From Eledone cirrhosa (Eukaryota): a stretch of DNA of 64,000 bases. The position numbers were made by a program, and so were the translations under genes. The notes below the pieces were generated by a model. It did no database searches and was not told the origin of the DNA. It worked only from the letters and a program-made list of their open reading frames with translations. This document shows positions 5,786-60,090 of the stretch, piece after piece (position 1 is the stretch's first letter; each line of letters opens with the position of its first letter). The DNA lies in contig OZ024743.1 in assembly GCA_964016885.1 (NCBI GenBank), forward strand, positions 124,868,001 to 124,932,000. Reading direction: 5' to 3'.

Positions 5786-6860
5786 AAACGGAAAAAATGA
5801 AACAAAATTTCATTTCTCACTCTTAGTACGGCTGTTACTTAAATATAAGTATGTATACGTACATACATATATGTATACAGACGTATAGTAGTATGTATAT
5901 ATATACATACATGCACACATATATATATATGTACGTATGGATTTACCGAACATTTATTATAATGCTCGGTGTGTTTGTAAACAAACATCCCGAATTAAGC
6001 CGTATAGTGTCTAGCAACCATCGTTGCTCATTTGTTCAACACTGACAAAGGATCGATGCACTAGTTTCAAGCTTATTAGCTATCGTCAGCACTGTATACC
6101 TTCCTGCCAGATGATTGAACATCTGAAAGTATATAATTTCCTTAAGCATATTAACGGCTGAGCAGCCTAATTTGCATATCGAGTGAGTTAATCGGCCGGG
6201 CGCACCGAAAACAATAAACGGAAAAAATGAAACGAAATTTCATTTCTCACTCTTAGTACGGCTGTTACTTAAATATAAGTATGTATACGTACATACATAT
6301 ATGTATACAGACGTACAGTAGTATGTATATATATATACATACATGCACACATATATATATGTACGTATGGATTTACCGAACATATATTATAATGCTCGGT
6401 GTATTTGTAAACAAACATCCTTATATTTGTAAACAAACATACTTATATTTAAGTAACAGCTGTACTAAGAGTGAGAAATGAAATTTCGTTTCATTTTTTC
6501 CATTTATTGTTTTCGGTACGCCCCGCCGATTAACTCACTCAATATGCAAATTAGGCTGCTCAGCCGTTAATATGCATAAGGAAAGTATATACTTTCAGAC
6601 GTTCAATCATCTGGCAGGAAGGTATACGGTGCTGACGATAGCTAGTTCCTTTGTCAGTGTTGAACAAAAGAGCAACGATGGTTGCTAAACACTGTACGGC
6701 TTAATTCGGGATGTTTGTTTACAAACAGACCGAGCATTATAATAAATGTTCGGTAAATCCATACGTACATATATATATATATGTGTGTGCATGTATGTAT
6801 ATATATACATACTACTGTACGTCTGTATACATATATGTATGTACGTATACATACTTATAT
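5786..6860. repeat. Retrozyme-like family A: ~1.5 tandem 430-bp units (minus sense) plus one inverted unit
   Basis: AAACGGAAAAAATGAAAC recurs at 5786 and 6216 (period 430); 6438-6860 is the reverse complement of a full unit; the unit carries a minimal HHR and an octamer ATGCAAAT. Confidence 0.8.
6054..6094 (-). ncRNA. Minimal type I hammerhead ribozyme, mutated copy (GUG triplet)
   Basis: Minus strand: cagtg CTGACGA tAGCTaataAGCTt GAAAC TA GTG catcg. Confidence 0.6.
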
Positions 6861-29549: not shown

Positions 29550-29886
29550 CATCATCATTTCATTTTACGTCCACTTTTCCCTGCTTGCAAGGGTAGGACG
29601 GGAACTGATTCTGGCTTGATTTCTACAGCTGGATGCCCTTCCTAACACCAACCTCATTTACAGTGAGTGCTGGGTGCTTTTTTGCCATGGCACCTCCACG
29701 ACCACTTTGCAGTGGAATGATAGGGACCCCAGTCCCTATCATCTCATTTCTACAGCTGAGTAAACTGGAGCAATGTGAAATAAAGTGTCTTGCTCAAGGA
29801 AACAACACATCACCCAGTATGAGAATTGAACTCACAACCTTTCGATTGGAAGGCCAATGCTCTAACCACTAAGCCATGTGCCTCCA
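29548..29886 (-). mobile_element. Full-length CORE-type tRNA SINE
   Basis: Reverse complement of 6872-7200. Confidence 0.85.
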
Positions 29887-31141: not shown

Positions 31142-32379
31142 CCACCCTTGCAAACAGGGGAAAGCGGACGTAAAATGATGATGACATATATACATATAAC
31201 GGCGATGAATTTGTTTTGCAAAGTTTTTGATATGAAATCGTGTGTCGAAACAAATATTGTTATACATGGGGAGGGTCATGTTGTAATAATATTGCCAGAA
31301 ATAATAACAGAACACACTGTTTGGTTGGTTTTCGCTTCTGCATCTTTTATATCTCCATAGTTAATTTATTTGGCAATCAATGTGTATCATTGACTGACCA
31401 ACGGTTAACATACAGATATAAATATATATATATATAGTCTAACAAAGTTCTTTCATTGAACATTTGTAACATCATCAGTAGTACTATTTTCATGTTTCCT
31501 CCTATTGTGTTGTATTGTAATATTCACGCCATTTTTATTTTATTTATTTATTTATTTATTTATTTATTTTTGTCTCCGTCTCTGTGCATGCGTTTGCGTG
31601 TGTGTATAATGTTTGGTGTGTTTGGGTGTATGTGTTTTGGTTTTTGTATTCTATCTTTGTTTACTAATGTGTGTTTATATATGTGTTTGCTGTTATTGTA
31701 CTTGTGTTTAACTTTGGTTTTCTAAGCCCTATTTCGCTCAACTTCTCTCATTTGCTTACCTGTTGGGTCATTTCTATGTTTAGATATTATTTTAATTTCT
31801 ATGTTGCCTATATTACCGTCATGTTTTTGTCTGGCATGTTCGTATAGTACTGAACCATTTTTTTGTCCTTTTAATTACCCCCAGTGTTGGTCTATTCTTT
31901 CTCCTATGCTTCGAGCTGTCTCACCTATGTATGTCGTTGTCATGTTTCAGCAGGTACCCTCTGTACATCTTATGCTATAGACTACATTTCTAGTTTTACA
32001 ATTTATCTGGTGGTTCACTTTACATATAACACATTTCTTATTAGTACAGTGGGTTTTCTTAAAAGGGTATGTTTTGCTGATCAGGGATTTTACGGAAGTT
32101 CCTGGCTTTTCTACCACTTTAATCTTTAAGTGGGTTTTTGTTAGGGCCTTTCTACATTGGTTAGCTAATTTCCCCCCAGGGGTAGCATCCATGAACATAA
32201 CACTCTGGTATCTCTGGTTGTCGTACCATGAGGTGGCTTTCCCTATCTTATGTTTAGTCCTATCTAAACTATTCCATGATTTGCTCCTGTATAATAGGAA
32301 AATTCTTCTCATGTCCATTTCTATGAGGGTCTTATACTTCTCCATGGCTCCTTTGTACTCTGATTCTGTCTCTTTGGTT

Positions 32380-34700
32380 CAGATGAACAAAATTTATCCC
32401 ATTAAATTACCTTTTAATAAAAGAGTTTGTACACCACAACAAATAGATGACGAAACAGAGGCACAGTTTACCATAGCTAGAAATAAACTTAGACAAATAG
32501 TAGACCGATATACTAAGAGACAAAGTAGACCAGAAATCCAACAACTTGGAAGGAAACCTGTAGAAGGCCTAGTAAGCCTCAAGCAGTGCACAAGGGATGG
32601 TGAGATAGTATGTCTACCCACAGATAAATCTGGTAGGATGTCAATAGACAGCATGCCAAACTACATCAAGGCTATGCAACCCCCCATCATCAACACGAGC
32701 GAAACAACACAACAAACACATGAGGGGAGAAAGAAGATCCTCAATGCTCACATAATGATGAGGACCGACATCCTAAAGCCAAGCAGACACACTGCCAACA
32801 ACTTCCAGGCGTCTAACAATGACATACCACCCTTGTATGGGCTCCGCAAAGACCATAAGACAGCCAACGACCCGACGACAGGACCACCAACAAAACCTGT
32901 ATGCGGAGCCAATATTGCTAGCAACTACAGGATCTCTTGCTTCCTCTCGATGGTTATACGCCCCATAATTAAGATGTCCCCAGATATATGGGACAGTACA
33001 GAGGACCTCCTCAAGAGAATCAATGAGTGCAACAAAAGCAAAAACTTATCTAATTGCATAATAGGCAGTATGGATGTAGTATCTCTGTACCCATCCATTA
33101 ACATTGATTTTTCTGTGGAAAAATGTGTGGAAATAATCAATGAGAGCGAGGTGGAGTTCTGCGATGTCGACACAGATGAACTGGGCCTCCTACTTAGACT
33201 TACTTATGACACCGAGTACCTAGATACCATGACATTAACTGTTTCTGCCCCAGTAGACCCATAAAAGGTAGACCCCCCCCCACCACCATAACCTCAATGG
33301 CAAAAAGACCCCCATGGGAAGGTGGAATGGATGGACCAAAGCCATACGGACACCCCAAAACAATGATCACGTGAGAAAAATGGTCGCGCATGCAATAGGG
33401 CTAGTATTAAAACTTCCCTAAAGGGCCATATGTTTAAATTCAATGAAAAGATCAACAACCAGAATGAGGGAGCAGCCATTGGCGTCAGCATAGCTGGTGA
33501 TGTTGCCAATCTATTTATGGTATGGTGGGAAAGGAGACTCAAAGATCTCCTTGAAGAGAGCTCCATAGACCTTGTCATATACTTTTGTTACATAGACGAT
33601 ATTAATATAGTAATAAGAACACCCCCACAAGAGAGTACAAATGAACATGATTTAGAATATAGCACAATGGAAAGCATCCAGCAGATAGCTAACTCCATAC
33701 ACCAGAGTATAACTGTAACTGTTGACTACCCTTTCAAACACCCTAACAATAGACTACCTGTATTAGACACGGAACTCTGGATTAACACTATAAACGAGAG
33801 GGCCCAAATTCTCCACTCACGCTATGCTAAACCCATGGCCTCCAAATACCTGATACTCAAAAACTCAGCAATGTCCAGTAGTGCTAAGTTTAATATTCTG
33901 ATTGCAGACTTGGTACGAGTGATGAAGAATGTGTCCCGCATGTGCGACCTAACAGAAATGGAAAGACACATCCAACACTTCATCAACCGCATGCAGTTCT
34001 CTGGCTACAACCAAAGAGACAGAATCAGAGTATACAAAGGAGCCATGGAGAAGTATAAGACCCTCATAGAAATGGACATGAGAGGAATTTGCCCATTATA
34101 CAGGAGCAAATCATGGAATAGCTTAGATAGGACAGAACATAAGATAAGGAAAGCCACCTCATCGTAAGACAACTAGAGATTCCAGAGTGTCATGTTCATG
34201 GATGCTACCCCTGGGGGGAAATTAGCTAACCAATGTAGAAAGGCCCTAACAAAAACCCACTTAAAGATTAAAGTGGTAGAAAAGTCAGGAACTTCCGTAA
34301 AATCCCTGATCAGCAAAACATACCCCTTTAAGAAAACCCACTGTACTAATAAGAAATGTGTTATATGTAAAGTGAACCACCAGATAAACTGTAAAACTAG
34401 AAATGTAGTCTATAGCATAAGATGTACAGAGGGTACTTGCTGAAACATGACAACAACATACATAGGTGAGACAGCTCGAAGCATAGGAGAAAGAATAGAC
34501 CAACACTGGGGGGAATTAAAAGGACAAAAAAATGGTTCAGTACTATACGAACATGCCAGATAAAAACATGACGGTAATATAGATAACATAGAAATTAAAA
34601 TAATATCTAAACATAGAAATGACCCAACAGGTGGGCAAATCAGAGAAGCGAGCGAAAGAGAGCTTAGAAAACCAAAGTTAAACAGAAAATACGAATGGAA
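32380..34700 (+). pseudogene. PLE ORF (RT + GIY-YIG), frameshifted
   Basis: Segments of ORFs 32074-33264, 33430-34167 and 34192-34443, continuing in frame after the TGA. Confidence 0.85.
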
Positions 34701-34985
34701 TAACAACAACCATACCCAAACAAACAATACTGAGTTAAGAGTAATATAAATAAATAAATAAATATATACACAAGTACAATAACAACAAACACATATAAAC
34801 ACACACTAGTAAACAAAGATGGAATACAAAAACCAAAACACAAACACACAAACGCGAACACACACACCAAACATTATACACACACGCAAACGCATGCACA
34901 GAGACGGAGACATAAATAAATAAATAAATAAAATAAAAATGACGTGAACATTACAATACAACACAATAGGAGGAAACATGATAAT

Positions 34986-35035
34986 TGTACCACTGATGAT
35001 GTTGCAGAAGTGCAACGAAAGAACTTTGTTAGACT
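34986..35035 (+). ncRNA. Hammerhead-like motif in the PLE 3' region (degenerate)
   Basis: CTGATGA t GTTGCA gaag TGCAAC GAAA gives a perfect stem II; stems I and III are poor; degenerate mirror at ~31435-31485. Confidence 0.45.
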
Positions 35036-38902: not shown

Positions 38903-39082
38903 CTTTAAATAAAGCCCTTATTGTACAGCCAACCATGTTACTCTTCTTTCTTTAACTATATATATATATATATATTCAGTAGTAAGCAAATCAAGACCAC
39001 AAACTCACATAGAAGACATTAGTCAAAGAGTATCAACATTAAGTGCAGTTTAATATAAAGAAGAGAGAGGGTAATAATGTCA

Positions 39083-39204
39083 GTTTACAATTGTTTCACT
39101 ACTCCATATAATATTTCTGGATCGATCGATGGTAAGATCGTTATTGATTTGATGCGGAGGAAGATAAGTAACATAAGATAATATTATGGAGCAGATCTCG
39201 GAAG
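39083..39204 (-). ncRNA. Degenerate HHR with enlarged stem II in the PLE 3' end
   Basis: Minus: CCGA-GA t CTGCTCCATA ... TATGGAGTAG t GAAAC AATT GTA; homologous to 61887-62007. Confidence 0.45.
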
Positions 39205-40538
39205 AGATAATGAAATTATTAATATATATAAAGTAGAAATAAAAATAAAATAAGAGGGTTACGTGTCCGTAAAGAATCCTCAGATTAGCAGCTCCCTAAA
39301 TGGGGTCCCATGGCACTGGAGAACTCAAGTGTATGGTATAAACAAACATTACATATCTGTCGAGGCTGAAAGTAAACAATGCCGCCTATCGCATAACAAG
39401 ATGGCTTCTTGTAGGAAAACTACCCTATTGTATAGAGATGGGTTTCAAGGGAGGTAACTCCTTGAAAAGCCAAAGGCTCCGGATGAGAGTTGTAATCAAG
39501 ATAATGTAAGGGACGTAGCTTATAGGTGTAGTCACAATGAGATTTGTAACTAAGATAATGCATGGGAGGTAACTTATAGGTGTTTATGTGGTGGACTAAC
39601 GATGTCTTTAGTTTGTTAGTTATAGGGAGGGGCATGATTAAAGGATAGGCTAAGTTGGGTCGAATATTCTGTTAACGAAGGAGCTCGCTCTGCGGTGGTG
39701 GCAGTTGATGACCAACTCATTCCTGTCATTGATGGGGAGTGGCCTTGACAAAGTTATGTGATAGGCCTCGGTAAGACAGAGATCGCAAAAATTTCTTCTC
39801 CCATTAAACGCTCGAGATCTAGCTAAGATATCCCAAGTTAGTGAATGTTCAATGTTGGCTAGTTTAAGGTTTTTAATGAGCCTGGCTAGAGAAGTTGAGC
39901 ATTTATGGCTAGGGTCACGGAAGGAAAATGAGTGCGCATTATAGCGGACCTTAAAGGGGTTAGATGTAGAGCCAATATAAGAGCTAGTAGATGAGGCCGT
40001 TCTAACCATGCACCTATATAGAATATTGGGCGTAAGGCACTGCCCATTAAGCGGGCACGCAGTGGGGTTACGGCAGTTGCAATTACGATTGCGATTAGTA
40101 GGGGTAGGGTTGTTTAAACTATGCGGCTGGTGTGTAGTAATGGGATTGGAGGGGGGAGTTCTGCTACTAGGATGAGTATTGGTATGGTTGCATGGTGTAC
40201 TTATGGTGAGTGGTAGTGCCGCAGGGGGGAGAGTTATATTTTTTTAGTTTATTATGGTTGCCGAATGCGATGTGGCTAGCTAGGTTCGGTGTAGTGGAGG
40301 AGATTTTAATATTGTTTTTATTAAAGAGTTTGTAGTATCTATGGTTAGGGGGGAAGTGTTTAGATAGGATGGAGAAGAAACGTTTAGGGATGTTAGTAGC
40401 TAAATTAGATGAGAGAGGAGAGTTAAGCCAGGTGATTTTTCTAGGCCTGTTACTTCTATGGGGTCTACCAGAACTGGCAGGGGTATTAACAGGGTTATCA
40501 TTGCCAAGGTGTTTGCCAATGGTAAGCCTATTAACCTT

Positions 40539-51599: not shown

Positions 51600-52015
51600 T
51601 AAAAACAAATAACGAAACGAAATTAAATTTCGTTTCGTTTGTAACTCACTTTTGTATGACTGACGCTTAAACAATTAAGTTAAAGATGTACATCCATATA
51701 TGTATACTGAAATACTAGTATGTATATGAATACACACACGTATACATATGTAGATGTACCAAGTTTTTTCACTGGTCACTTTACTGTGAGTGGCCAGCTA
51801 TTCTGTATGTAAACACACAGACAAACCGGTTTTTAGAGTCATACTGGTTTTTGAGGAAACACCTTTCCTCTATTCTCCAGAAAGCCAGACAAGGAATATT
51901 GAACTAGTTTCGTTGTTGTTACAACTCATCAGCAATATTTACCTATCTTCCGGCCTCTCTAGAGAATCGTAAAAGCACATATCGTTATATGCTTTTTCTA
52001 TGAAAATTTAACTTA
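51600..52015 (-). repeat. Diverged relative of retrozyme family A
   Basis: Same module order as 5786-6215 (GAAAC.AAATT...TCACT, TA-rich core, GTAAACA.AC, GACAA.GGA, HHR) at low identity. Confidence 0.65.
51895..51939 (-). ncRNA. Canonical minimal type I hammerhead ribozyme
   Basis: Minus: AATATTG CTGATGA GTTGT aaca ACAAC GAAAC TA GTT / CAATATT: 7-bp stem I, 5-bp stem II, palindromic ACTAGT stem III, GUU triplet. Confidence 0.85.
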
Positions 52016-53867: not shown

Positions 53868-54240
53868 ATAATAAGGGCGCTGCGGAGTTGCAAATGGGTT
53901 ACATATGAAAAAAGTTTGTCCTTCATCAGTGATCTTCCAACCATCATAGGCATTTCATCGCTTTAAAGACCATATACCTCCGGTTGGTGCGAGCAACGGC
54001 TAAAAAAAGTCGTTGGGACACGTAAGGGTAAACAAACAAAATGGTGAAGCAACAGAAAGTGAGGAAGAAAGAGATTGCTTCACCATTTTGTTTGTTTACC
54101 CTCGCGTCCCCTTTATTTACGTGTCCCAACGACTTTTTTTAGCCGTTGCTCGAACCAACCGGTGGTATATGGTCTTTAAAGCGATGAAATGCCTATGATG
54201 GTTGGAAGATCACTGATGAAGGACAAACTTTTTTCATATA
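53868..54240. repeat. Inverted pair (hairpin) of family C ends
   Basis: ~53903-54051 is the reverse complement of ~54075-54238 apart from a short indel; homologous to 48190-48380. Confidence 0.8.
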
Positions 54241-55250: not shown

Positions 55251-55402
55251 CGTTATTCCGGGTTGAATCGGAGGTAACCACGGTAAGTAAGGTACTCAAT
55301 ACATAGCAGAGTATAAAACTTTTAATGAATGAAACAGATCCAGTCCTGTAGAATCTCTTCTATATATATATATATATATATAGATATATATATATGTGTA
55401 TA

Positions 55403-55493
<91 letters not shown>

Positions 55494-55586
55494 TTCTGCA
55501 TCATGCATTCTCATCTCGGGAACAATTTTGAATAGTGCCAGTTCGTAATTTGAACTCGGGAATTTTATATTCTCCGAGTGAAAAGA

Positions 55587-55673
55587 ACATTCTGACGAGA
55601 GTTTATCTTTGTAATGGAAGCCCGCAAGGACTATCCATTTATTTTTGAGACTCGAAACTGAATCGGTAAAGGT
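55587..55673 (+). ncRNA. Type I hammerhead ribozyme (copy 1)
   Basis: acatt CTGACGA gagttt...agactc GAAAC TGAATCG GTA / aaggt. Confidence 0.7.
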
Positions 55674-56073
55674 AACCATAGTAAGTAGAGTAAATTGTTT
55701 GAAATTTATTTTGAAACTTTTTCTTATTTGCTAAACCTTGATTATATATGTTCTGGCTCGTTAATTTATTAACCTGCCATTGAACCACTTTGGCATATGG
55801 TAGGATAATACATGTGTCCCTATTCGCTTTTTGCGTGTAGGGATATATACTTTATTATTATTAATCTCCCCCTGGTCGAGATGAAATTTGGTCGTTTTGA
55901 CTACTGCTATTTATAGTGGTAGTAGATTGACCTCCATGCTTCTGCCTTCTATCTTTGCACACAGCACTGGACAGAATTGCTTCCACATCATTCATTCTCA
56001 TCTCGGGAACAATTTTGAATAGCGCCAGTTCATAATTTGAACTCGGGAATTTTATATTCTCCGAGTGAAAAGA

Positions 56074-56161
56074 ACCTTCTGACGAGAGTTTATCTTCTCA
56101 ATGGAAGCCCGGCAAGGACTATCCATTTATTTTTGAAACTCGAAACTGATTCGGTAAAGGT
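56074..56161 (+). ncRNA. Type I hammerhead ribozyme (copy 2, fully paired)
   Basis: ACCTT CTGACGA GAGTTT [AATGGA..TCCATT inner helix] AAACTC GAAAC TG ATT CG GTA / AAGGT. Confidence 0.8.
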
Positions 56162-56233
56162 AAACATAATATTTGAAATTCTTTGAAATTTATTTTGAAA
56201 CTTTTTCTTATTTGCTAAACCTTGATTATATAC

Positions 56234-57197
56234 ATCATCATCATCATCATCATCATCATCAAGGTTTAGCGTCCGTGCTCCACGCTTGCATGGGTTTGGA
56301 CGGGGGTTTTCCCACTTGAGGCAAGAGTGGTTGTCTTGCTCGCATAGGACTGTCTGGCGGGTTTTCTACAGCTGGATGCCCTTCCTAACACCAACCACAT
56401 TTACAGTGTGGGGCTGGGAGGTTTTTACCGTGTTGCCTACACGGCCACATTTACAACGTGGACTGTGTGTTTTTTGTCGTGACACCTATACGATCTCAAT
56501 TGTTTCGGCCTGGATGTTGTGGCACCAACATAACTTTACATTGAAAGGGGCGGTGTGGATGGGGTGGGGGTGGTGGGACGGGGTTGTGTTTTGATAGAGA
56601 TGCCTACTGACTGTAGTAGGTTTTACTTTGTATTTAGGTAAGGCGGGTCTCCTCTATTACTGAGTACCGCCAAAGGTCTCGGTCCAGTGACATTGTCTTG
56701 GAGAGGTGTAAGTGTGTGAGGTCGGAATTTATCATGTCGTCCCAGGTTTTTCTGGGTCTGCCTACTCCGTGGCTACTGTCTATCTTTATTGCCCTGCACT
56801 TTGTTATACAGCTGTCGTCTTTCATGCGCATCACATGACCGTACCCTTCTCTCGAGTAAACAACATCTGATCCCTCTTATTTCTAAATTTTTCCTTAGTT
56901 CGTTTATGCTTAGCCGTTCACGTATATTACTATTGCACATCCAGCGGAGCATGCAAGCTTCGTTCCTCTCTAGTCTGCGTATATCCTCTGCACACAATGC
57001 CCAGGTCTCACTGCCATGCAGCATTGCTGTTCGTATGCAGGCATCGTATAACCTGCCTTTCATTTTTAGGGAGAACCCTTTAGCGGCTAATAGTGGTATA
57101 AGCTCTCTGAACTTTTTCCATCCAGTTCTGACTCTAGCTACTGTATATTCAGAGCACCCTCCCCCACTGCTGATTTTGTCACCCAGGTAACGGAACA
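56234..57197 (-). mobile_element. 5'-truncated RTE LINE
   Basis: [21 protein letters not shown]; 3' UTR; (CAT)n; 5' end in (TA)n. Confidence 0.9.
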
Positions 57198-57329: not shown

Positions 57330-57375
<46 letters not shown>

Positions 57376-57540
57376 CATGCACACATATATTTATATACGT
57401 ATCGGTTTACCGAAAATTTATTATAATGCTCGGTTTGTTTCTTTGTAAACAAACAGCCCGAATTACGCCGTACAGTGTTCAAGCAACCATCGTCGCCTTT
57501 TTATCGTTTTCGGTGCGCCCGACCGACTAACTCACTCGAT

Positions 57541-57548
57541 ATGCAAAT
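57541..57548 (+). promoter_or_regulatory. Octamer motif ATGCAAAT within the family A unit (also 6170-6177 minus, 6544-6551, 59703-59710)
   Basis: Exact match ~75 bp upstream of the HHR in all four unit copies; function not shown. Confidence 0.35.
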
Positions 57549-57623
57549 TAGGCTGCTCAGCTGTTAATATGCATAAGGAAAGTATATACTTTCAGATGTT
57601 CAATCATCTGGCAGAAAGGTATA

Positions 57624-57664
57624 CGATGCTGATGATAGCTAATAAGCTTGAAACTAGTACATCG
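57624..57664 (+). ncRNA. Minimal type I hammerhead ribozyme (intact core)
   Basis: CGATG CTGATGA tAGCTaataAGCTt GAAAC TA GTA / CATCG. Confidence 0.8.
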
Positions 57665-58152
57665 TTCCTGTGTCAGTGTTGAACAAAAGGGCGGCGATGG
57701 TTGCTTGAACACTGTACGGCGTAATTCGGTCTGTTTGTTTACAAAGAAACAAACCGAGCATTATAATAAATGTTCGGTAAACCGATACATACATATATAT
57801 ATGTGTGCATGTATGTATATATATACATACTACTGTACGTCTGTATACATATATGTATGTGCGTATACATACATACTTACATTTAAGTATCAGCCGTACT
57901 AAGAGTGAGAAATGAAATTTCGTTTTATTCTTTTCCATTTATATATATATCTGTTTTTTAACCTGATTAGTTCTTTCGTTACTTTGGTATTGCATGGTTG
58001 GGTTTTGCCTACCGCAATTTCCAATTTGTCAAGCTATTTAAGCGTATGTTATTACTCTAAGGACCTACACTTATTGTGCTGTGCTACTCATTCCTTATGT
58101 TATGTCGACTTTGCTTGGCTACAGCCAAAGCTTCGATTTTACTAAGCTTCCA

Positions 58153-58537: not shown

Positions 58538-58877
58538 GGAGGCACATGGCTTAGTGGTTAAAGCATTGGCTTTGCAATCGAAAGGTTGTGAGTTCAATTC
58601 TCAGACCGGGTGATGTGTTGTTTCCTTGAGCAAGACACTTTATTTCACATTGCTCCAGTTTACTCAGCTGTAGAAATGAGATGATAGGGACTGGGGTCCA
58701 TATCATTCCACTGCAAAGTGGTCATGGAGGTGCCACGGCAAAAAAGCACCCAGCACTCACTGTAAATGAGGTTGGTGTTAGGAAGGGCATCCAGCTGTAG
58801 AAATCAAGCCAGAATCAGTTCCCGTCCCACCCTTGCAAGCAGGGAAAAGCGGACGTAAAATGATGATGATGATGATA
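58538..58877 (+). mobile_element. Full-length CORE-type tRNA SINE
   Basis: Near-identical to 42641-42985. Confidence 0.9.
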
Positions 58878-59389: not shown

Positions 59390-60090
59390 TAAGCATGTAT
59401 ACGTATATACATATATGTATACAGACGTACAGTAGTATGTATATATATACATACATGCACACATATATATATATATGTACGGCTAAATTCGGGTTGTTTG
59501 TTTACAAACAAACCGAACATTATAATAAATGTTCGATAAACCCATACGTACATATATATATGTGTGTATGTATATATATATGCATACTACTGTACGTCTG
59601 TATACATATATGTATGTACGTATACAGAGTGAGAAATGAAATTTCATTTCATTCTTTTCCATTTATCGTTTTCGGTACGCCCGGCCGACTAACTCACTCG
59701 ATATGCAAATTAGGCTGCTCAGCCGTTAATATGCATAAGGAAAGTATATACTTTCAAAAGTTCAATCATCTGACAGGAAGGTATATAATGCTAACGATAG
59801 CTAATAAGCTCGAAACTAGTTTATTGTTCCTGTGTCAGTGTTGAACAAAAAGGCGACGATGGTTGCCGAACACTGTACGGCTTAATACGGGCTGTTTGTT
59901 TACAAACAAACCGAACATTATAATAAATGTTCGGTAAACCCATACATACGTATATATATATGTGTGCATGTATGTATATATATACATACTACTGTATGTC
60001 TATATACATATATGTATGTACGTATACATGCTTATATTTAAGTATCAGCCGAACTAAGAGTGAGAAATTTCATTTCATTTCATTCTTTTC
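59390..60090. repeat. Retrozyme family A: short inverted partial + ~1.4 tandem units (HHR at 59786-59826 with CTAACGA mutation)
   Basis: GTACGGCT.AA..CGGG.TGTTTGTTTACAAAC recurs at ~59477 and ~59875. Confidence 0.85.

Follow-up and report, generated by a model that had tools for sequence, protein, structure and literature searches.

Non-LTR retrozymes of metazoans, described in coral, mussel and axolotl among others, are tandem, non-coding repeats whose units carry type I hammerhead ribozymes (PMC7229834; 10.64898/2026.07.22.740005). In the sections of these papers used for comparison, the units are present in many copies, have a GC content below 50% and give a strongly self-paired monomer, and their length is put at 150–450 bp in the first account and 51–972 bp in the second. 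Most invertebrate retrozyme motifs act alone according to the relevant part of PMC7761336. The main text of PMC7229834 predicts that the ribozyme is free in most metazoan retrozyme circles and leaves open how the circles of animals escape cutting themselves again. Here we describe a locus in a 64-kb window (the whole stretch of DNA that was analysed) that has the features of this group: head-to-tail hammerhead units, many copies, no coding capacity, a GC content below 50% and a self-paired monomer. Its unit of 488 nt lies above the first size range and within the second. The locus differs from the published retrozymes in having a 56-nt stem II region with an internal loop (a comparison that covers structures outside their supplementary material), in a predicted pseudoknot where they have loop–loop contacts, and in a circle that is predicted to block its ribozyme.

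The hammerheads that Penelope-like elements carry in their pseudo-LTRs are a second point of reference. As presented in the compared sections of PMC4209133, PMC8557442 and PMC11167929, they share with our locus a partial tandem arrangement, the type I topology, a 5-bp stem I, a long stem II, a palindromic helix III and microsatellite flanks. The minimal motifs of this group have an absent or tiny helix III and an extra base after A9 (PMC4209133, as far as compared). By contrast, these features are absent from our unit, which has a full 4-bp helix III and in which G10.1 follows A9 directly with no extra base between them. The arrangement expected of an autonomous Penelope-like element, with an open reading frame (ORF) for a reverse transcriptase (RT) and a GIY-YIG endonuclease between the repeats, is likewise absent from the 1.5-copy tandem, and the unit matches no pseudo-LTR of an autonomous element within the 64-kb window.

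The third relevant group comprises hammerheads in which additional pairing braces stem I against stem II. Such pseudoknots are reported for about 40% of hammerheads, across all three types, and the disruption of one slowed the rate 20- to more than 100-fold (PMC3088659, in the part compared). The type III motifs in hepatitis delta virus (HDV)-like circles of termite and toad are braced in the same manner: they have a 5-bp stem I and a 6-bp stem II, and the 5′ strand of a hairpin-capped internal loop pairs with the loop of the other stem (PMC7936874, as excerpted). Our motif has stems of the same 5 and 6 bp in a mirror arrangement. It is type I, and the looped extension of its stem II is predicted to pair with the nucleotides immediately 5′ of stem I. 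Unlike the toad and termite circles, the unit has no delta-antigen ORF and no antisense ribozyme; a search of the unit found neither an antigen ORF nor a ribozyme motif on the minus strand, the marks of an HDV-like or viroid-like circle.

A 3′ half-unit and, after it, one whole unit make up the locus, which has a (TA)n(CA)n microsatellite on its left and, on its right, the (GAT)n tail of an inverted LINE (interval 55361-56273; Table 1). The two copies of the repeat are 91.4% identical over 257 columns, with 21 differing columns in a global alignment, and BLAST finds no copy of the 55493-55748 repeat in the 64-kb window beyond that at 55980-56232. An earlier note on this DNA had described a second tandem retrozyme-like unit. 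The tandem arrangement holds, with the amendment that only 1.5 units are present, and the retrozyme-like character is supported. The 488-nt monomer has a GC content of 36%, and its longest ATG-initiated frame encodes 34 amino acids on the sense strand (with the joint included) and 62 on the other strand. In a check for a target-site duplication, which in non-LTR retrozymes exceeds 4 bp where one is present, the longest word common to the two flanks was 8 nt and consisted of microsatellite sequence.

Table 1 Coordinates of the tandem locus, its hammerhead motifs and the predicted tertiary and decoy pairings, numbered from the first nucleotide of the window
Feature	Position	Strand	Remarks
Left flank	55361..55492	.	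(TA)n, then (CA)n microsatellite
Repeat copy 1	55493..55748	+	3′ half of unit, 5′ side truncated
Middle part of unit	55749..55979	+	single occurrence here; series of hairpins
Repeat copy 2	55980..56232	+	short TA run at end
Right flank	56233..56273	-	(GAT)n tail and LINE 3′ end, opposite orientation
Predicted monomer, cut site to cut site	55669..56156	+	488 nt
Hairpin 5′ of ribozyme	56041..56066 (copy 1: 55554-55579)	+	arms 56041-56046/56061-56066 and 55554-55559/55574-55579
Hammerhead copy 1	55580..55673	+	core 55592-55598, 55654-55657; predicted cut after 55668
Hammerhead copy 2	56067..56161	+	core 56079-56085, 56142-56145; predicted cut after 56156
Stem I, copy 2	56074-56078/56157-56161	+	5 bp
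Stem II, copy 2	56086-56091/56136-56141	+	6 bp, G10.1-C11.1
Extended stem II, copy 2	56086..56141	+	56 nt; 6 bp, then 8x8 internal loop and capping hairpin
Inner stem II helix, copy 2	56100-56105/56122-56127	+	capping hairpin above internal loop
Stem III, copy 2	56145-56148/56152-56155	+	4 bp including one U-G
Palindromic stem III	56145..56155 (copy 1: 55657-55667)	+	monomer 4 bp and triloop; dimer 10-11 bp
Predicted pseudoknot, 5′ strand	56067..56073 (copy 1: 55580-55586)	+	directly before stem I
Predicted pseudoknot, 3′ strand	56093..56099 (copy 1: 55606-55612)	+	5′ strand of stem II internal loop
Predicted decoy	55735..55739 (copy 2: 56219-56223)	+	stem I 5′ strand repeated in unit tail

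Copy 2 conforms to the type I hammerhead consensus, with CUGANGA, GAAA and RUH boxes, the G10.1-C11.1 pair and three helices of which helix I is open; copy 1 conforms except for one mismatch in stem I, where A replaces C at 55589. The CUGACGA cores begin at 55592 and 56079, and in copy 2 GAAA is at 56142 and GUA at 56154-56156. The 5-, 6- and 4-bp stems, inner helix and canonical core that the earlier note had read in copy 2 are all located by sequence, and the arms of the ACUCGG/CCGAGU hairpin that it placed just 5′ of the ribozyme are found beside both copies. Its spacing of exactly 487 bp is correct for the cores. Owing to a single additional base in copy 2, at 56111, the predicted cut sites are separated by 488 nt, and the monomer is accordingly predicted to be 488 nt and not 487 nt long.

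With a descriptor of the same stringency as copy 2, the window gives a single match, which is copy 2 itself, and there is none in 1,500 shuffled windows (100-base blocks, both strands scanned); copy 1 fails this descriptor because of its stem I mismatch. Another pattern, which was taken from the sequence of the locus and is no independent test, had no match in 100 shuffles. The hammerhead families of Rfam give no match at the gathering score anywhere in the window, nor at E values up to 10 in 55490-56235, likely because of the long stem II. The family is thus invisible to Rfam, and descriptors that allow a long stem II may reveal many more such families. Pattern scans for the motif returned no locus in metagenome contigs and none in viral contigs.

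The monomer is strongly folded, with z scores of -6.7 as a linear and -7.6 as a circular RNA, compared with -4.0 and -4.9 for the opposite strand (25 shuffles each); a separate test with 100 shuffles gave a z score of -5.2. The signal is attributable to the middle part of the unit (MFE -74.8, z -6.6, 100 shuffles), since the repeat by itself folds in an ordinary way (z -0.4). The palindromic stem III bears on whether the ribozyme acts as a monomer or a dimer. With the majority base of the sequencing runs at 56147, its hairpin has a stability of -2.0 kcal/mol, which would make the monomer fold feasible for intact members of the family, whereas both copies in the window stand at +0.2 kcal/mol because of a U-G pair. 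Between the two window copies, all 11 nt of the stem III segments can pair (-13.1 kcal/mol). The dimer fold of the locus (-183.2) is 6.4 kcal/mol better than two monomer folds (-176.8), with the free fold at -196.8, and the folds of copy 1 alone and copy 2 alone lie 6.7 and 1.6 kcal/mol, respectively, above their own free folds. The suggestion that cleavage might be monomeric rather than dimeric is therefore half right: the monomer fold is feasible for intact members and suits the copies found here less well than the dimer. Both routes appear possible in these models: intact members could act alone, and the locus in the window leans towards the dimer.

The seven nucleotides directly before stem I complement the 5′ strand of the internal loop in stem II, and we predict that the two form a pseudoknot. 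Watson–Crick pairs occupy six of the seven positions in copy 2, five of seven in copy 1 and all seven when 56097 carries its majority base, and an eighth pair (56066-56100) is possible. Both strands lie outside all helices and the core. The chance of at least seven contiguous pairs in such a place is 0.0013 and that of five pairs 0.053, values that apply to a pairing noticed before the test. Read by eye, a consensus that has no core (X1, five contigs) has two pairs swapped within the register of the pseudoknot. The 7-bp pseudoknot would hold stems I and II parallel and take the place of the usual loop–loop contacts. If real, this brace could allow a ribozyme without such contacts still to cut fast, and it would be the type I counterpart of the brace in the termite and toad HDV-like circles. 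We found no description of this architecture in animal retrozymes in the literature searched, in which PMC7229834 is represented by its main text; mussel motifs that lack the usual contacts are shown in the supplement to that paper.

A second predicted feature of the unit is a decoy in its tail. This repeat of the stem I 5′ strand would pair with the 3′ strand of stem I and so close a long hairpin, with an energy of -15.6 kcal/mol in copy 1 and -6.7 kcal/mol in copy 2. In the circle the decoy has a pairing probability of 0.62–0.74, compared with 0.11–0.16 for stem I. The margin in favour of the decoy is 2.5 kcal/mol, a modest effect computed without the pseudoknot. As the transcript grows, the active fold of copy 2 becomes more costly, from 1.8 to 5.6 kcal/mol. 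The tail decoy, made about 60 nt past the cut site, would capture the stem I 3′ strand and damp re-cutting of the circle. It is noteworthy given that, in most animal retrozyme circles, the ribozyme is predicted to stay free, and the decoy helix provides a concrete candidate for how retrozyme circles escape re-cutting. The class of element was already known, and for this reason the element alone would be a modest addition; what appears new here are the modelled pseudoknot and decoy.

We surveyed the family in contigs from three sequencing runs of one sample of unrecorded kind, which contain 41–44% of sampled words and whose organism may be a relative. Contigs matching the unit (55746-56232) at an identity of at least 80%, in four identity bands, number 1,292, 1,502 and 1,308 per run; these are not copy numbers, and no single contig covers the entire unit. 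Depth is present in all 29 bins of the unit, including those of the middle part. The head-to-tail joint from 56229 to 55746 occurs in 10, 4 and 3 contigs. The 1,292–1,502 contigs per run and the presence of the joint in all three runs establish a multi-copy tandem family, composed of many divergent copies with head-to-tail arrays. The duplication, which the earlier note had allowed might be unique to this locus, is therefore one instance of a dispersed tandem family.

We compared sequence variants in the runs with the structure derived from the window, using 30 of the 40 listed variant rows (of 91 in total) and leaving out 10 of low depth (56167-56176). Fourteen of the 30 fall at unpaired positions, five keep a G-U pair, two improve a pair, two (55940 with 55963) constitute a compensatory two-sided change of one pair and seven break a pair. 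Thus, 7 of the 16 rows at paired positions disrupt the model, all of them outside the ribozyme. Among the 40 of 91 rows listed, the core and stem I are free of variants, and the three in the modelled ribozyme helices (56097, 56137 and 56147) keep or improve pairing. A minor change at 56106 would break one pair inside the capping hairpin, where the model had left the inner pairs open. At 56097, 56137, 56147 and 56164 about 99% of run depth differs from copy 2, and copy 1 has the base of the runs at 56097, 56137 and 56164. These differences from the majority bases indicate that each window copy has lesions of its own, which fits decay after insertion, and by its sequence the locus looks like a decayed member of the family. 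Loose ends of the contigs reveal a subfamily with a changed 5′ strand of stem II (10 contigs in X1 and 12 in X3), and one loose-end consensus (X1, behind 56068, five contigs) is the coreless sequence considered above. These subfamilies count against a uniform ribozyme function across the family.

The locus is likely to be a 1.5-copy, partly decayed member of a non-coding family of non-LTR retrozymes. We favour, with a probability of roughly 0.7, a retrozyme cycle composed of read-through transcription, two cuts, ligation and copying by a Penelope-like element. By analogy with the published systems, the locus would be transcribed, and a transcript that spans two copies would cleave itself behind every GUA to give a unit of about 488 nt. 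This unit would probably be circularised, with an RtcB-type ligase as the expected enzyme, and then probably reverse-transcribed back into (TA)n sites by the enzymes of a Penelope-like element. The literature basis for cutting, ligation and copying lies in the relevant parts of PMC7229834, 10.64898/2026.07.22.740005 and PMC4209133, and portions of PMC5680766 and PMC6155905 also bear on the mechanism and its alternatives. At the locus itself, the core of copy 2 is sound and would act on site 1 if the dimer forms and on site 2 if the monomer does. Because both copies here carry lesions, the RNA is more likely to come from other loci. A fuller version of the cycle, in which the pseudoknot brace gives fast monomeric cutting, the decoy serves as an off-switch and stable 488-nt circles are abundant in cephalopod tissue, is a tentative proposal that we regard as doubtful. 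Eight of nine predicted frog retrozyme dimers failed to cleave (10.64898/2026.07.22.740005, in the part compared). The unit has no similarity to the ends of the Penelope-like ORFs of the 64-kb window that would mark one of them as its partner element. A 3′ end in common with the Penelope-like element at 39650(-) was considered (p 0.002, one of 10 tails) and rejected when the value rose to 0.21 without the TA run.

The 1.5-copy layout is also that of pseudo-LTRs in the accounts compared, and the tandem could accordingly be the pseudo-LTR of a Penelope-like derivative that is non-autonomous and is copied from a linear RNA made by read-through, with an inherited hammerhead that cuts seldom or only when helped by protein and with no build-up of circles. 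This linear route gains support from the anole Penelope-like element, which inserted uncut RNA in vitro and whose ribozyme cleavage depended on protein and was dispensable for insertion (PMC11167929, as excerpted); putative non-autonomous, multi-copy, head-to-tail elements are also described in Chlamydomonas in the relevant part of PMC8557442. Nevertheless, helices I–III are complete in the majority ribozyme, which also has a candidate for a tertiary brace and in this differs from the minimal motifs of such elements. The whole unit is strongly structured, and we consider this route unlikely. Satellite-like spread by DNA duplication and unequal exchange, with a hammerhead that was once active and no present RNA step, would be in keeping with the head-to-tail joints in the runs and with the altered-core subfamilies in the loose ends, and a DNA-level route is discussed for retrozyme arrays in 10.64898/2026.07.22.740005 (part compared). 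It is made highly improbable by the isolation of the copy between unrelated repeats, its 5′ truncation and terminal TA run, and the lack of variants in the core and stem I among the 40 of 91 rows listed.

The unit might instead be a SINE-like element that is moved by the abundant LINE; the (GAT)n-tailed 3′ end of this LINE resembles that of the unit. The last 13 nt of the unit match the end of the adjacent inverted LINE at 13 of 13 positions and four other LINE ends of the window at 11 of 13, with p 0.004 against shuffles for one of two ends tested, after the fact. A match of 11–13 nt is short, however, and the tail hairpin and decoy of the unit already explain these bases. Moreover, the unit ends in TA, no (GAT)n run occurs in any of the 12 joint sequences listed, of 26 in total, and a search of the unit found no Pol III A box, no plus-strand B box and no tRNA. 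We therefore give this origin very little credence, while noting that the 11–13-nt match lacks a full explanation. The last 13 nt of the unit and of the LINE (56214-56226 and 56258-56270) form a perfect inverted repeat, for which template-switch correction would be a guess.

Under the favoured retrozyme cycle, this is likely to be the first case from a cephalopod, as we found no cephalopod retrozyme in the open-licence papers searched. Giant squid has 235 Rfam hammerhead-1 loci (PMC6962438), and recently active Penelope-like families occur in Octopus vulgaris (PMC13282606), according to the parts of these papers that were compared.

The window as a whole is rich in microsatellites and full of retroelement pieces. 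Pfam confirms the endonuclease domain of one LINE ORF; among eight Penelope-like pieces it assigns no family to seven and gives one weak RVT_1 match (E 0.0038). By their motifs, we take the ORFs of the window to be RTE (including the LINE of the right flank) and Penelope-like elements. One RT-like ORF has 26 relatives, including one in Argonauta hians that is 45% identical. Together with the repeat content, this relative suggests that the host is an octopod.

A second hammerhead family, probably the one termed family A in the earlier note, is represented at 57629-57658 (+), 59791-59820 (+) and 6060-6089 (-). It has a 6-nt palindromic stem III, and its copy at 59791 has an altered core. Partial repeats with periods of 398 and 430 surround two of these hammerheads. 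With family A taken as the motifs at 57629(+), 59791(+) and 6089(-), our unit gives no BLAST match to it, and whole-unit local alignments have p values of 0.30 and 0.02. A single hammerhead at 51879-51950 (-) matches Rfam HH9 with 37.7 bits (E 7.7e-7), which is under the gathering score, and the 3′ end of its unit resembles that of family A (p 0.002). Two related hammerhead-like cores at 34993 (+) and 31478 (-), with an odd stem III region, flank Penelope-like ORF pieces at 31947-34805. At approximately 39080-39200 (-), a Penelope-like ORF is succeeded by a long hairpin, behind which come a GAAA box, a stem III palindrome and GUA (39086-39097); no clear CUGANGA was found in this interval, which may be a hammerhead that has a long stem II and has decayed.

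Two tRNA-like heads, at 29819-29876 (-) by an Rfam tRNA match and at about 58545-58600 (+) by eye, are likely to belong to SINEs; ARAGORN calls no tRNA at either position. The window also contains near-exact duplications, 53128-53658/54508-55039 (99.6%) and 45708-45890/46451-46633 (100%), that represent recent duplication or an assembly artefact. Long inverted repeats with short spacers occur at 53900-54240 and 57334-57853, the latter bracketing a family A hammerhead.
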